A stretch of DNA of 41,211 nucleotides, taken from positions 1-41,211 of IMG/VR virus record IMGVR_UViG_2698536518_000008. One strand, written 5' to 3'. Origin of the DNA: a virus (taxonomy: Duplodnaviria > Heunggongvirae > Uroviricota > Caudoviricetes). Positions 7,023 through 12,081 of this stretch are shown piece after piece (position 1 is the stretch's first letter; each line of letters begins with the position of its first letter). The translations under genes and the position numbers were made by a program. The notes beneath the pieces are model-generated. The model was not told the origin of the DNA. It searched no databases and saw nothing but the letters and a program-made list of their open reading frames with translations.

Positions 7023-7437
7023 TGACTTACCCTCTGTCGTTACCCGCTGATGCGGGAGAAATGCTTTGGCGATGTGGTAGGTGGGAGACCCATTTCGACC
7101 CGATTCGGCCTACTTATCTTCGGCAATAGCTCCTCGGGCCTCGCCGCTTTACGTGCGACATATTCCCGTCCATGAACCCTTCACCACATCCCATAACATT
7201 CCCTGTATTGGTCAGCGCCAACTCCCTGCCAGTGTTGCCCGTTCTCACGCCGTTCTCGCTCTCGCGCGGGGATACTCTCTCACCGACCGGATCGCACCCG
7301 GTGATACAGCACGTTTACGTGTAGGGGTCTTAACAGGTCATTGACGCTGTAAATCTGCATGTTGTTAAAAAGCAGGCGACTTGCTGTCCGCCGCTGGCTA
7401 ACTTCGCTCAGCTGTCGATGTTTCGTTTCGATGGGGT

Positions 7438-7520
7438 AAATTTAGCGTGATGCTAAATTATGCGCAATAGCAAAATGCTAAATTGTTGAATGGTTTTATT
7501 TAGCGTATTGATTAATAAGC
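7438..7520. promoter_or_regulatory. OL-like operator cluster / leftward early promoter region
   Basis: Perfect palindrome AATTTAGC-N5-GCTAAATT at 7439-7459 plus two degenerate copies (about 7466-7486 and 7494-7514); same half-site as in the cI-cro intergenic region. Confidence 0.55.
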
Positions 7521-7564
7521 GATTAAAAATTTACAGCGAAGGAATTCGGGACGTAAAAAAGCCC

Positions 7565-7588
7565 GCGCGATGGCGGGCTTGAGGGGTT
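7565..7588 (-). terminator. Intrinsic terminator downstream of cI
   Basis: Plus-strand AAAAAA-GCCCGC-gcgatg-GCGGGC; on minus strand GC-rich hairpin followed by U6, 10 nt after the cI stop codon. Confidence 0.6.
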
Positions 7589-7598
7589 TTGCGTGAGG

Positions 7599-8276
7599 TT
7601 ATGGGATGTTTAGTATTTTGGCATCAACCACAACGCCGATGATTTTGCAGTTTCCATTAATTTCTAGCATTGGATATGCGGGGTTAAGGGGCTTTAGGAA
7701 GCGTCTGCCGGCATCGATTACAAGCTTCTTAAAGGTCGCTTCGTTATCGCCTTCTAGCTTCGCGACAACCAGCTTTCCGTTGCGCGGCTCGACTTCAGGA
7801 TCAACAAGTATCGCTGCTCCCTCGGGTATGCTCAGTCCAGCCGGGGAGGTCATAGAATCCCCTTTAACGTCCAGCCAGAATGAATCTTCTGAGCAGTCAA
7901 CAGTCGTGTCATACCAGCGATCTATCGCTCTTCGGTGATAAGGTTCTACAGCTTCCATCCATTGCCCCGCGCTTACCCAGCTGATTACAGGATAACTTCC
8001 TTTTGTCTCGTTCAGTCCTCGAAATGCAACGTTCGAAGGTTCTTCACTGGCGTGTAAAACATCCATCCAGCCAAAAGGCAGATCAAGCGCAGTTTCAATT
8101 TTGCGAGCCATCTTATCGCCGATATTGCGATGAGGGTTTGGTCCCAGTAGCTGGCTAAGCGCAGCCGGACTTGTCTCGATGAGCTCGGCAAACTGCGCTT
8201 TGGTCATTCCAGACTCGTGCTGACGCTTCTCGTACAGCGCTTCCAGGTTGGCTTTTCTGATTTCTTTATTTTCCAT
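7599..8276 (-). CDS. cI: CI-type prophage repressor (HTH + S24 LexA-like peptidase domain)
   Basis: Track ORF 7599..8393; likely start at internal Met 8276 (MENKEIRKANLEALYEKRQ...); N-terminal HTH, C-terminal autocleavage domain with GDSM serine motif and downstream lysine (VVAKLEG); divergent from cro. Confidence 0.85.
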   Translation of the reverse strand: MENKEIRKANLEALYEKRQHESGMTKAQFAELIETSPAALSQLLGPNPHRNIGDKMARKIETALDLPFGWMDVLHASEEPSNVAFRGLNETKGSYPVISWVSAGQWMEAVEPYHRRAIDRWYDTTVDCSEDSFWLDVKGDSMTSPAGLSIPEGAAILVDPEVEPRNGKLVVAKLEGDNEATFKKLVIDAGRRFLKPLNPAYPMLEINGNCKIIGVVVDAKILNIP

Positions 8277-8292
8277 ACCTGCATTGTTACTG

Positions 8293-8360
8293 CTTTTAGC
8301 AAAATGATAAATGTGCAAATTGCTAAATGATGCTTGCGTAGTATTTAGCATAACGCTAAA
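8293..8360. promoter_or_regulatory. OR-like operator cluster with divergent promoters (pRM/pR equivalents)
   Basis: TTTAGC-N5-GCTAAA perfect site at 8344-8360 and TTTAGC-N5-GATAAA at 8295-8311, further partial copy around 8316-8338; located between divergent cI and cro starts. Confidence 0.6.
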
Positions 8361-8392
8361 CTCCAAATCAAACGACTCACCCGGAGACACCA

Positions 8393-8626
8393 ATGAGCAC
8401 TGAACTACACCGCTGGCGCAAGGCCGCCACTACCGACGAATGGGCGCAGCTCGCAAAGTTGGCTAACACGACGCCAGGTTACCTGGACCAGATCGCCTAC
8501 GGAAATCGCCGGGCATCTCCAGAAATGGCATCTGCTATCGAGAAAGGCACGAAGAATTTTCACCGCCAGGCTCCGGTCCTAAAAGAAAGCCTGGTATTCG
8601 CATCGCCGCGTGATACTGCGGCCTAA
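8393..8626 (+). CDS. cro: Cro-like HTH regulator
   Basis: 77 aa; first rightward gene after operator cluster; HTH-like segment EWAQLAKLANTTPGYLDQIAYG. Confidence 0.7.
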   Translation: MSTELHRWRKAATTDEWAQLAKLANTTPGYLDQIAYGNRRASPEMASAIEKGTKNFHRQAPVLKESLVFASPRDTAA

Positions 8627-8643
8627 CCACGAAAGGGAAAGCA

Positions 8644-9186
8644 ATGCATTCACTTGCGTATCAACACAATACCGGAATACACCCGGGAGCGATGATAAAC
8701 CGCGCTCAAGCTAAAGCGACGCCGGACCACGAAAAGATCCGCGATGCGGTCCGTGCCTGGTCATCGGCGCTGGATAATCAGGACGTGGTGTCAGCGCTGA
8801 TCATCAACGAATACCGGGAGCAGGGCGGGACCGCCATCAGCTTTCCGGACGACATCAGCCGGGCGCGCCAGAAGCTGTTCCGCTTCCTGGATAACCGCTT
8901 CGACTCTGAGCAGTACCGCGAGAACGTGCGCCAGCTGACGCCCGCAATCATGGCCGTTTTGCCGCTGGAGTATCGCCATCGACTTCTTCCTGAGGACAGT
9001 TTTATGTCCCGCTTAGCTCGACTTGAGAAAGAAACGAGCGAGGCGAAAGTGGCCGTTGCGATGAACGCCCCGCGTCACCAGAAGCTCAAGGAACTCAGTG
9101 AGGGGATTGTAGAGATGTTCCGTGTCGACCCGGATCTGACCGCGCCGCTGATGGCTATGGTCACTTCGATGTTGGGGGTTATGTGA
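8644..9186 (+). CDS. Early regulatory protein (CII-like / YdaT-like by position)
   Basis: 180 aa immediately after cro, SD-like GGGAAAG upstream; assignment by synteny and vague recollection of long CII/YdaT-type proteins, not by firm motif. Confidence 0.4.
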   Translation: MHSLAYQHNTGIHPGAMINRAQAKATPDHEKIRDAVRAWSSALDNQDVVSALIINEYREQGGTAISFPDDISRARQKLFRFLDNRFDSEQYRENVRQLTPAIMAVLPLEYRHRLLPEDSFMSRLARLEKETSEAKVAVAMNAPRHQKLKELSEGIVEMFRVDPDLTAPLMAMVTSMLGVM

Positions 9187-9275
9187 TGGGAAGTTTCAAA
9201 AATGGCGAAAGCCAGTCTGCGCGAACAGAACTGGCCTTCAGATGCAAATCGTGTGCACTCATTGCAGGAGGAATA

Positions 9276-9422
9276 ATGGCAAAAAATCCACGCTATTACC
9301 ATACCGCTGTACATAAAAACATAACCCGCGACCGCTTCATCCGCTCGGTTAACCCGATTGTGGCAGAGAAGATGCGCGCCATCCTGGAAGAAATGAAACG
9401 TAAGGAGAGTGGCCGTGGGTAA
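9276..9422 (+). CDS. Small hypothetical protein (48 aa)
   Basis: Track ORF 9183..9422 likely begins at ATG 9276 (MAKNPRYYHTAVH...) which has a canonical AGGAGG SD 6 nt upstream. Confidence 0.35.
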   Translation: MAKNPRYYHTAVHKNITRDRFIRSVNPIVAEKMRAILEEMKRKESGRG

Positions 9423-10314
9423 CGTATCCAATTTAGCCGAAGCCAGAGAGGCCAGAAGGCTCCAGAAACCGCGCACGAATGACGGTAAGGGGTTTGCCTT
9501 GCTGCACCGTAAAATTATGGATGTGCCGTTCTACAAGGACGCTGAGGCGGCTCATTTATGGGTTCACATGCTCCTGCGTGCTAATCACGAACAGACACTG
9601 GTATCTACTGATGTTGGCGATGTGATCTGCGAGCGCGGAGAGTTCATCACCGGGCGAAACACACTGGCAATGGAAACGGGTTTGACCGCTGATCGCGTTA
9701 AATCCCTTCTCCGTAAATTCCAGAATCTGGGCATGATCACCACCAAATCGAACAACCGTTTTACTGTTCTAAAAGTGGTCAAATATGACGAATATCAGTC
9801 AAATTTTTGTCCAGCAGATGTCCAGCCAGCGTCCAGCCCAAACATAGTCGTACCAATGCCTGCGGAGGTGGAGTGTCCAGCCGATGTCCAGCCAGTGTCC
9901 ACAGATAACAATATATTAAATAACTTACTACCTAACGGTAGTAAGTATGTCGCAAATGACCAGAAACCCGCTGAAGAGAAAAAGTCTCGTTTGTCATGCG
10001 ATGAAGTATGGCAATGCCTGAAAGACGAACTGCCTGAAGCACGGGGATGGAGATGCCTCACTGATGAGCGACGCAATCTGATCCGCACATTCTGGGGTAA
10101 GGCTAATAAGATTGCCCGCAACCTGGACGGCAAGCCGATGGATATGGACGGTTTCAGAAGCTATCTGCGTTACATCGCTCAGAACTGCCGCTGGATGCTT
10201 GAAGACCGACCAGACCAGAAGTCTGGGAAGACCTGGCGCCGTATGAAATTCGATAAGTTCCTGACCGAAAAGCTCTACATCGAAGTGCGCGAGGGGGATC
10301 GTGATGACCGCTGA
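9409..10314 (+). CDS. Replication initiator (lambda O-like) containing the probable origin
   Basis: 301 aa; position before DnaB-type helicase; N-terminal DNA-binding-like region; gene body contains phased iterons, AT-rich tract and inverted repeat (see repeat feature); true start may be GTG 9415. Confidence 0.65.
   Translation: MAVGNVSNLAEAREARRLQKPRTNDGKGFALLHRKIMDVPFYKDAEAAHLWVHMLLRANHEQTLVSTDVGDVICERGEFITGRNTLAMETGLTADRVKSLLRKFQNLGMITTKSNNRFTVLKVVKYDEYQSNFCPADVQPASSPNIVVPMPAEVECPADVQPVSTDNNILNNLLPNGSKYVANDQKPAEEKKSRLSCDEVWQCLKDELPEARGWRCLTDERRNLIRTFWGKANKIARNLDGKPMDMDGFRSYLRYIAQNCRWMLEDRPDQKSGKTWRRMKFDKFLTEKLYIEVREGDRDDR
9809..9946. repeat. Putative replication origin: six 11-bp-phased GTCCAGCC-type iterons + AT-rich tract + 9-bp inverted repeat
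   Basis: GTCCAGC(C/A) copies start at 9809, 9820, 9831, 9875, 9886 and degenerate GTCCACAG at 9897 (all multiples of 11 bp apart); AT-rich 9905-9922; perfect IR ACTTACTAC-N6-GTAGTAAGT at 9923-9946. Confidence 0.6.
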
Positions 10315-11737
10315 TTTCATGGCTGTACCACAAAACCTCGAAGCAGAGCAGAGCGTTATCGGTGGCCTGCTGCTGGATGATGACAACAGCGAGCGAGTCC
10401 AGAAGGTTCTGGCGATGCTCAAGCCTGAATCGTTCTACAGCCGACCTCACCAGCTGATCTTTGCCGAGATGCGCCAGATGTTCCGCGACAACAAGCCAGT
10501 CGATGGTCTGACATTGTTCGACGCGCTCGAAGGCAAAGGGCTCGCGGAGCAGGTAGGTGGCTTTGCTTACCTGGCGGAGATCGCCAAGAACACTCCCAGC
10601 GCTGCAAACATCGTGGCATACGCTGCGTCAGTCCGGGAAGCCGCAATGGAGCGCTACGGTATCAGCCGCCTGACCGAAGCTACTGAGCTGCTGTATTCCC
10701 GCAATGGCATGAGCGCCACGCAGAAGTACGAGGCCATTCAGGGTATTTTCACCCAGCTCGCAGACCATTCAAAAACCGGTAGTCGCCGTGGGTTGCGGTC
10801 GTTCGGCGAGGTTATGGATGACTGGGTAGCAGATCTGGAGAAACGCTTTGACCCTTCAGGCGAACAGCGCGGCATGAGCACCGGCATCCCGTCACTCGAC
10901 CGGCTGCTGGCGCCGAAAGGTCTGGTTAAAGGCTCTCTGTTCGTGATTGGCGCAAGGCCAAAGATGGGCAAGACAACCCTGTACGGTCAGATGGCGATCA
11001 ACTGCGCGGTTCGTGAGAAAAAGCCAGCGCTGATTTTCAGCCTCGAAATGCCGGGCGACCAGATCCTCGAAAAACTGGTTGGTCAGAAGTCTGGAGTTAA
11101 CCCGAGCATTTTTTACATGCCAGCCACGGATGACGCCGATGACCAGTACCAGGGCGATTACGACGGCGACTTTAAGAAGGCGATCGCCACCGCCGGGCGA
11201 TTGAGTGAAATCGACATGCTGTACATCGACGATACTCCTGGCCTGTCACTGGCGCACATCGTTAGCGAAAGCCGCCGAATCAAGCGCGAGAAGGGCTGCG
11301 TAGGAATGATTCTGGTTGACTACCTGACTCTAATGACCGCCGAAAAAGCCGACCGTAATGACCTGGCCTACGGGATGATCACCAAAGGTCTGAAGAATCT
11401 CGCCAAAGAGCTTGGCTGCGTCGTCGTGCTGCTGACCCAGCTCAACCGCGAACTGGAGAAGCGAGTGAATAAACGCCCGTTGCCGAGCGATTCCCGCGAC
11501 ACAGGGCAGATTGAGCAGGACTGCGACTACTGGGTTGGTATCCACCGGGAAGGTGCTTTCGATGACAGCGTGCCGCCGGAAGAAACCGAGTTAATACTGC
11601 GACTCAACCGCCACGGCAGTACCGGAACGGTTTATTGCAATCAGAACAACGGGGCAATTTACGACACAGACCAGCAGGCCGCCGCCGCAGAACGCCGCGG
11701 GCGTGAGCAGCAGCCGAAAAAGAAAGGGGGGTTCTGA
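10301..11737 (+). CDS. Replicative DNA helicase (DnaB family)
   Basis: 478 aa; Walker A GARPKMGKTT, conserved DnaB C-terminal RecA-like domain motifs (LIFSLEM, ILVDYLTLM, VVLLTQLNRELEKR). Confidence 0.9.
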   Translation: MMTADFMAVPQNLEAEQSVIGGLLLDDDNSERVQKVLAMLKPESFYSRPHQLIFAEMRQMFRDNKPVDGLTLFDALEGKGLAEQVGGFAYLAEIAKNTPSAANIVAYAASVREAAMERYGISRLTEATELLYSRNGMSATQKYEAIQGIFTQLADHSKTGSRRGLRSFGEVMDDWVADLEKRFDPSGEQRGMSTGIPSLDRLLAPKGLVKGSLFVIGARPKMGKTTLYGQMAINCAVREKKPALIFSLEMPGDQILEKLVGQKSGVNPSIFYMPATDDADDQYQGDYDGDFKKAIATAGRLSEIDMLYIDDTPGLSLAHIVSESRRIKREKGCVGMILVDYLTLMTAEKADRNDLAYGMITKGLKNLAKELGCVVVLLTQLNRELEKRVNKRPLPSDSRDTGQIEQDCDYWVGIHREGAFDDSVPPEETELILRLNRHGSTGTVYCNQNNGAIYDTDQQAAAAERRGREQQPKKKGGF

Positions 11738-12081
11738 TGACCATAACAATTCGTGGGCAGATTCTTGCAGCCCTGCGTAATAACCCGGGCCTGAATAGTG
11801 CTTTCATTGCCAGGATGATCGGCATGACCACCAAAAAGATTTCCGGCCCGTTAAGTACGTTGTTTGCAGACGGCCTGATCGAGTTCGAAGGCAAGCACGG
11901 ACAGCGGCTTTATCGGCTGACCGATTACGGCATGAAATACGCACCAGAAACAATCCCGGCTATGCCGAAGGGAAATTCGAAGCTGGTGCAGCGTACAGAG
12001 GCAAACGTGATCTGCCAGGAGTGCCGGAAAAGTCCGGCTATGAAGCGAGTATTGATGGTTTGGGGGAGGGTAGGGGTATGA
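11737..12081 (+). CDS. Hypothetical protein, possible winged-helix DNA-binding
   Basis: 114 aa; ATGA overlap with helicase stop; LAALRNNPGLNSAFIARMIGMTTKKISGPLSTL resembles wHTH. Confidence 0.45.
   Translation: MTITIRGQILAALRNNPGLNSAFIARMIGMTTKKISGPLSTLFADGLIEFEGKHGQRLYRLTDYGMKYAPETIPAMPKGNSKLVQRTEANVICQECRKSPAMKRVLMVWGRVGV

Follow-up and report, generated by a model that had tools for sequence, protein, structure and literature searches.

We identify in this stretch of DNA, a window of 41,211 nucleotides, what is very probably a theta-type replication origin, carried in the linker-coding part of the window's own initiator gene. Two triplets of an 11-bp direct repeat with the core TGTCCAGC span positions 9808-9906, and an A-rich tract and a perfect hairpin follow them on the way to the coding part of the C-terminal domain. 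The window is a mosaic lambdoid prophage with an integrase-type ORF at its start, and its origin locus is an ordinary sequence variant of an architecture already annotated or published in homologous phages. Upstream, the initiator gene is preceded by a lambdoid immunity region that comprises an S24 repressor, a cro-like gene, and a gene with a YdaT domain; downstream, the ORF list shows no helicase loader gene between the initiator and helicase genes. The elements are the following.

9409-10314, plus strand: initiator ("O-like") gene, 301 aa from GTG 9409, from the ORF list and a phrog_345 match
9484-9798, plus strand: predicted winged-helix-like N-terminal DNA-binding domain, residues ~26-130, from the AF2 model
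9808-9840, plus strand: iteron block 1, units TGTCCAGCAGA, TGTCCAGCCAG, and CGTCCAGCCCA
9841-9873, plus strand: inter-block spacer of 33 bp, free in sequence and fixed in length
9874-9906, plus strand: iteron block 2, units TGTCCAGCCGA, TGTCCAGCCAG, and TGTCCACAGAT, the last degenerate and merging into the A-rich tract
9901-9922, plus strand: A-rich tract ACAGATAACAATATATTAAATA, the presumed DNA-unwinding element, from composition and conservation
9923-9946, either strand: perfect inverted repeat ACTTACTACC-TAAC-GGTAGTAAGT, arms of 10 bp around a 4-nt loop, potentially folding into a hairpin or cruciform
9988-10311, plus strand: helical C-terminal domain, residues ~194-301, AF2 pLDDT about 80-88
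10301-11737, plus strand: DnaB-like replicative helicase gene, overlapping the initiator stop codon (Pfam DnaB 2.5e-31, DnaB_C 1.4e-58)

The initial annotation, made from the sequence alone, had described six copies of GTCCAGC(C) at multiples of 11 bp. Five are exact and start where it placed them (9809, 9820, 9831, 9875, and 9886); the sixth, at 9897, reads GTCCACA and takes the core form TGTCCACA. A repeat finder pairs 9808-9835 with 9874-9901 at 93% identity, with starts 66 bp apart, and reports no inverted repeat inside the array, whose units are without dyad symmetry. The iterons are not due to chance, because first-order Markov simulations of the window (n=200) never reached the five exact in-phase copies of one 7-mer that are present here inside 100 nt (a maximum of 2 copies in 199 runs and of 3 in the remaining one). 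A periodicity check proposed for the region agrees with this, as no other position in the entire window is as strongly 11-bp-periodic as the two blocks. The array is also the sole iteron cluster in the 41 kb, with no second one found. Outside it GTCCAGC occurs 6 times against 5.6 expected by chance, and we therefore attribute to chance the two that lie in the repressor gene, at 7835 and 7869. The further suggestion that the repeats lie on one face of the helix holds for the spacing, in exact multiples of 11 bp, but is only approximate as geometry because the 11-bp period differs from the 10.5 bp of B-DNA; the first-to-last core distance of 88 bp amounts to 8.4 turns at 10.5 bp per turn. It is a matter of speculation that the invariant 11n spacing could reflect slight untwisting of the bound DNA. 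A likeness to the DnaA box was considered and set aside: the last iteron, GTGTCCACA, differs from TTATCCACA by at least two mismatches by eye, and the fit is worse in other iteron classes.

The AT-rich tract reported at 9905-9922 is present and now extends over 9901-9922. Ranked by AT content among 24-nt windows, it falls within the top 0.11% of a sequence that is 51% GC overall, and GC content is 0.275 over the 40-nt window 9900-9939. The adjoining inverted repeat is perfect, as had been claimed, and occupies 9923-9946, although its arms are 10 bp long around a 4-nt loop rather than 9 bp around six nucleotides. Folded as single-stranded DNA, the hairpin has an energy of about -9 kcal/mol and a z of about -5, whichever strand is taken. 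Its pairing is maintained by covariation in an ungapped 28-nt alignment of 15 distinct 10+4+10 variants, where 96.7% of cells are paired and each of the 10 pairs varies at both of its bases; the nine inner pairs stay intact throughout and pass through no intermediates changed on one side only (G-U type). The observed values were not reached in any of 500 shuffles, and controls slid along the alignment dropped to 28-47% paired. The loop is kept as T(A/G)A(C/A) across the variants. Which stem variant a locus has does not depend on its iteron class, C-domain, or helicase, and this argues for a structure-dependent element and not a site read by one such protein. A tie between the stem and the C-domain or helicase was rejected because one and the same stem accompanies widely differing partners, with C-domains 49-98% and helicases 69-99% identical to those of the window.

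To place the locus among its relatives, 105 further loci were taken from viral contigs and GTDB genomes, and about 110 homologous loci were compared. Almost without exception, a locus has its strongest 11-bp periodicity ~395 nt into the gene. The order of 3+3 units of 11 bp, A-rich tract, and hairpin is common to six iteron classes, namely that of the window and five others sampled, and the terminal iteron variant CCA(C/T)A is kept in all of the iteron classes. Every two-block homologue, whatever its class, has a block-to-block distance of exactly 66 bp; spacings of 63 or 69 bp would keep the reading frame too, and neither is used. The last core lies 24 nt from the hairpin in the window and in 93 of the 110 loci.

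The level at which selection acts can be read from 66 distinct sequences of the GTCCAGC class. Across the 48 iteron core positions the minor-allele fraction is 0.002, with all three codon positions alike, and it is 0.090 for the inter-core bases and 0.095 for the 33-bp spacer, in both cases equal at all codon positions. The A-rich tract stands at 0.014 and the hairpin at essentially 0, whereas flanking coding DNA gives 0.030, 0.023, and 0.067 at codon positions 1, 2, and 3, the normal third-position excess. Selection thus targets the origin DNA rather than the linker peptide. The repeats do encode the duplicated peptide that had been pointed out (CPADVQPASSPN and CPADVQPVSTDN in the translation), but the iterons are not a peptide repeat, because 11 is not divisible by 3 and the three units of each block are therefore read in three frames; the duplicated peptide is thus a by-product of the 66-bp register. 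Homologues that keep the peptide and lose the DNA repeats had been named as evidence against an origin, and the comparison came out the opposite way: the peptide varies and the DNA cores are fixed.

Iteron copy number differs among homologues, as the initial annotation had proposed to check. Proteins of 277, 299-301, 321, and 343 aa correspond to one, two, three, and four three-iteron blocks, an assignment that follows from lengths differing by whole units of 22 aa (66 bp). One-block variants with only three iterons do exist (for example the IMG/VR viral-contig locus L023), and we count these against the origin reading.

Iteron class tracks the identity of the N-domain and not that of the C-domain, and natural recombinants separate the two. 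Locus L091, whose N-domain is 99% identical to that of the window and whose C-domain is 50% identical, retains GTCCAGC; L086, in which the identities are 63% for the N-domain and 98% for the C-domain, has TACCAGC iterons next to the same hairpin as the window. Two further loci, L106 and L107, retain the N-domain of the window's family together with six iterons, A-tract, and hairpin, and from the hairpin onward continue into a lambda-O C-domain with 62% identity to lambda O residues 162-299. Only these two genes have a lambda P homologue (PF06992) as their downstream neighbour, in place of the DnaB-like helicase; in homologues with the window-type C-domain, the DnaB-like helicase gene always comes next. 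Judged by their sequences, these natural chimeras behave like domain swaps, and they suggest that the N-domain and iterons together form the origin-recognition module and that the C-domain pairs with the helicase or loader partner.

The initiator itself matches phrog_345, "replication initiation O-like," over its full length (E 1.5e-67, residues 5-301), and in full-length alignment is 41-55% identical at the amino acid level to HK620 O, phage L gp18, Sf6 gp43, and the O protein of Yersinia phage 30.14. Annotated homologues start two codons downstream, at GTG 9415. Searches for a Pfam or NCBIfam family found no significant one for this protein, and a sequence search of solved structures gave no meaningful match. 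Its AF2 model is of moderate confidence (mean pLDDT 64.7). The N-domain is modelled as a helix-turn-helix with a beta wing (residues ~32-130, pLDDT about 60-84), and residues 131-193 are predicted to be a disordered linker (pLDDT about 30), followed by the helical C-domain over residues 194-300. In this model the origin elements, which correspond to residues 134-180, would lie wholly inside that linker. Foldseek against the PDB returned weak matches, at E of 0.01 or more, all of them to winged-helix DNA binders, which is consistent with the domain assignment without being proof of it. The C-terminal domain is presumed to be a helicase-recruiting module.

We infer from homology and from the anatomy of the locus that the initiator binds the repeats, unwinds the neighbouring DNA, and recruits the helicase, and we propose a role for the hairpin. 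Initiation may begin with binding of the N-terminal winged-helix domain to the 11-bp repeats, probably by one protomer per unit, head to tail, in two groups of three held in the fixed 66-bp register. The resulting nucleoprotein complex would then destabilise the A-rich tract on supercoiled DNA, and the C-terminal domain would bring in the phage DnaB-like helicase encoded immediately downstream. The hairpin on the far side of the A-rich tract could act as an accessory, structure-dependent element that bounds unwinding or serves as an entry signal for helicase or primase.

Other explanations of the same features have to be weighed against the origin. The repeats could be a duplicated peptide tolerated in a flexible linker, or slippage-prone DNA with no function at the DNA level, and both the predicted disorder of the encoded linker and the expansion and contraction of the 66-bp unit would fit such a history. 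We find this barely credible, given that conservation of the cores is even over the three codon positions with the spacer peptide left free, that each block is read in all three frames, that the core sequence shifts together with the N-domain, and that the register stays at 66 bp though two other in-frame spacings were available. A different argument accepts the iterons as true initiator sites and makes them mainly regulatory, through titration, autoregulation, copy pairing, or an oriR-like fork barrier, with initiation taking place elsewhere. Plasmid iteron arrays do serve both initiation and control. PMC3485210 describes SPP1 G38P as binding a second, late site as well, oriR, which is thought to stall forks. 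A mainly regulatory role is nevertheless very unlikely here: there is one cluster only in the 41 kb, the conserved A-rich tract always comes directly after the iterons, an arrangement that marks an unwinding site, and in SPP1 initiation takes place at oriL, the homologous site within the gene.

The hairpin invites a separate objection, that together with the A-rich tract it is an intrinsic terminator for leftward transcription on the minus strand and not part of the origin. A consensus scan does class minus-strand positions 9946-9923 as a terminator-like site whose tail is TATTTAATAT, the phage L record carries predicted minus-strand terminators at the equivalent place, and covariation of the stem would also fit an RNA hairpin. 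The stems, however, are AT-rich (of 9-10 pairs, 1-4 are G-C) and fold as RNA at only -6 to -14 kcal/mol; the inner nine pairs lack the G-U intermediates mentioned above, and terminator-like matches are not enriched (4 found against 3.8 expected). In a sigma-70 promoter scan covering 7400-11000, neither strand yielded a promoter-like site, which gives no support to an origin-proximal or antisense promoter. A search of the whole window against Rfam at gathering thresholds returned nothing, the only match near the origin being one to isrF at chance level (E 0.83). The proven origin of lambda has the same kind of element. On all these grounds we consider a terminator unlikely, and this explanation touches the hairpin only and would be compatible with the origin reading.

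Taking a replication origin as the preferred interpretation, we tentatively advance a broader reading, which may well prove wrong in either of its two parts. The in-gene origin could be an ancient design shared by the G38P-like superfamily, spanning Firmicutes phages (SPP1, Lrm1 with the same TGTCCA core, and Staphylococcus phage 2339) and enterobacterial lambdoid prophages, with the 66-bp block as the modular unit that sets iteron dosage. The covarying hairpin, 24 nt past the last iteron, could in turn be a structure-specific working part of the origin, possibly a single-strand entry hairpin for helicase or primase; it could also be a target of defence systems that sense origin hairpins, as has been reported for OLD at ori-lambda (bioRxiv 10.64898/2026.07.10.737580).

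In practical terms, the origin can be marked with confidence in this prophage and in its many Enterobacter, Klebsiella, and Salmonella relatives. Studies of origin specificity and of origin hairpins can draw on ready material in the natural chimeras, the copy-number series in 66-bp steps, and the covariation of the hairpin. Current understanding is not overturned by these results, whose added value is modest and lies in the link to SPP1, the strictly modular build in 66-bp units, the naturally occurring chimeras, and the hairpin's covariation.

The closest known systems are the phages with initiators of the HK022, HK620, Sf6, and L type. Records of HK620, Sf6, and phage L annotate a rep_origin at the equivalent place in the homologous gene, and in L gene 18 Zaworski et al. 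(PMC8022706) described six repeats of 11 bp, which they considered the likely origin. The window shares with this group a homologous full-length initiator, repeats at the same gene position, two 11-bp triplets in 66-bp register with a degenerate last unit, an A-rich tract followed by a perfect hairpin with a 4-nt loop, and a DnaB-like helicase gene that comes next. It differs in the iteron core, which is TGTCCAGC in the window, TGTCCAAC in L and Sf6 (GTCCAAC), and (G/T)TACCAGC in HK620 (TACCAGC), with TGCCAAC or TACCAAC in the Yersinia phage; in the hairpin stem (ACTTACTACC versus TCTCTAATAC); and in the N-domain, which is 45-63% identical between the window and this type. A literature search on the enterobacterial family found no experimentally mapped origin and no demonstrated protein-iteron complex, and a search with the iteron strings returned unrelated papers only. 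The nearest published phages are Enterobacter phage CobraSix and Klebsiella phage Chronis (98% and 93% DNA identity over the gene, respectively); both have the array as in the window, with the origin unannotated and the gene called hypothetical.

The comparison with lambda requires more care. The locus had been called a lambda-like ori-within-O arrangement with an 11-bp unit, which is right for the layout and the in-gene position, but the protein is not a lambda O homologue: BLASTP against lambda O gives E=13, hhalign a probability of 0.2%, and there is no match to PF04492, which lambda O itself matches at 5.7e-36. "O-like" is therefore a functional label, because the N-domain is homologous to SPP1 G38P and not to lambda O, and the label of these "O" proteins is corrected to relatives of the SPP1 replisome organizer. 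The two systems have in common a mid-gene origin, the sequence of iterons, A-rich tract on the same strand, and 4-nt-loop palindrome, and a specificity that is modular between N-domain and C-domain. The lambda palindrome, with 12-bp arms and a 4-nt loop, likewise lies directly after the A-rich tract. Unlike the 11-bp direct repeats of the window, lambda has four iterons of 18-19 bp that are internally dyad-symmetric and are each bound by a dimer of O (PMC6022878). Its A-rich tract is about 40 bp long, compared with about 20 bp in the window, and its partners are the P loader and host DnaB, in place of a phage-encoded DnaB-like helicase.

Plasmids offer a looser parallel. RepA_N-type plasmids, such as that encoding pSK41 RepA, have a winged-helix initiator with iterons in its own coding sequence. 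Among the weak fold matches of the window's initiator are 4pql, "N-terminal domain of DNA binding protein," and 4pt7, "Structure of initiator" (E about 0.03-0.06), both of which we take to relate to pSK41 RepA. This weak structural resemblance is an analogy only.

The relationship to SPP1 is of a different order. An hhalign comparison aligns residues 25-133 of the initiator with residues 2-114 of G38P, the SPP1 "replisome organizer," at 97.6% probability (E 3.7e-12, 32% identity over 109 columns), and by this sequence comparison we regard the two N-domains as homologous. SPP1 oriL, within gene 38, consists of G38P-bound direct repeats together with an AT-rich unwinding element, and a 356-bp oriL fragment drives theta replication in vitro (PMC5737612, PMC6316719). 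As in the window, the repeats lie inside the initiator gene, right after the part that codes for the N-domain, and an A-rich element follows; their 11-bp periodicity (29/33 from +353 nt in the gene) is the strongest in the 18 kb examined. In contrast to the window, the SPP1 repeats are GAAACGACAC-like and form five contiguous units rather than 3+3, oriL shows no equivalent perfect hairpin, and G38P has a Phg_2220_C C-domain (PF09524), for which the window's initiator has no match, together with a separate helicase loader, G39P. More distant relatives of the N-domain extend the pattern. Lactobacillus phage Lrm1 has in-gene units TGTCCATCxAC, with a terminal TGTCCACA as in the window, and Staphylococcus phage 2339, a Vibrio phage, and a Paenibacillus prophage have in-gene 11-bp repeats; in all four an A-rich tract follows the repeats. 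Because the initiators of this family relate to the SPP1 replisome organizer, SPP1 oriL is a better experimental guide to the origin described here than the origin of lambda.

We identify two natural chimeras in which the enterobacterial phrog_345-type N-domain is joined to a C-domain of the lambda-O type:

L106, 1423-3062, chimeric initiator locus of a Dryocola prophage
L107, 1486-3131, chimeric initiator locus of a Pantoea prophage

In both loci, the N-domain is that of the window's family, as are the six 11-bp iterons, the A-tract and the hairpin, and the junction with the lambda-O-type C-domain (62% identity) lies at the hairpin. The gene that follows encodes a homologue of lambda P in place of the DnaB-like helicase.

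Initiators of the family also differ in length by whole units of 22 aa (66 bp), giving one, three or four iteron blocks versus two in the window:

P0002-P0008, initiators of 277 aa
P0122-P0147, initiators of 321 aa
P0121, initiator of 343 aa
L023, length-variant locus

Genomes of Klebsiella and Salmonella have the one-block form, in one case on 17 contigs. The three- and four-block initiators are of the HK620 type, and almost all of them come from E. coli. At its 5' end, the initiator gene shares 85–86% DNA identity over ~150 nt (9416-9567) with the O genes of HK620, HK022 and Stx phages; for the remainder of the gene, megablast returned no match to these phages. The segment 9416-9567 has the appearance of a conserved mosaic piece or joint. 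A small upstream ORF (9183-9422) with a weak DUF2740 match overlaps part of it.

The iteron core recurs upstream, in the S24 repressor gene (7599-8393):

7835-7841, + strand, GTCCAGC
7869-7875, + strand, GTCCAGC

These copies are spaced 34 bp apart, and one of them, ACGTCCAGCCAG, agrees with an iteron at 11 of 12 positions. Given that the window holds six copies outside the origin against 5.6 expected by chance, the repressor-gene pair is probably coincidental. At 8299-8334, a 16-bp unit, GCAAAATGATAAATGT, is present in about two copies according to Tandem Repeats Finder; these copies are within or adjoin the divergent repressor/cro control region and could be operator repeats. The usual cII position of lambdoid phages is occupied by a gene (8644-9186) with a YdaT_toxin domain (PF06254, E 6.9e-27). 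Directly 3' of the helicase gene, a small ORF (11737-12081) has weak winged-helix/MarR-type matches (E 4e-4 to 7e-3); the counterpart in Chronis is annotated as 'MarR family' and that in CobraSix as 'putative protein ren'.

Distant relatives of the N-domain likewise carry 11-bp direct repeats inside the gene, followed by an A-rich tract:

L113:1553-1665, Lactobacillus phage Lrm1
L115:1540-1690, Staphylococcus phage 2339
L114:1516-1610, Vibrio phage 1.165.O
L111, ~1960-2060, Paenibacillus locus
L117:9932-10040, SPP1 gene 38

The tract has a 9-bp periodicity in L113, L114, L115 and L117, the four loci in which this was assessed. Although protein identity between Lrm1 and the window is only ~27%, the two have the TGTCCA core in common and their terminal repeat unit, TGTCCACA, is identical.
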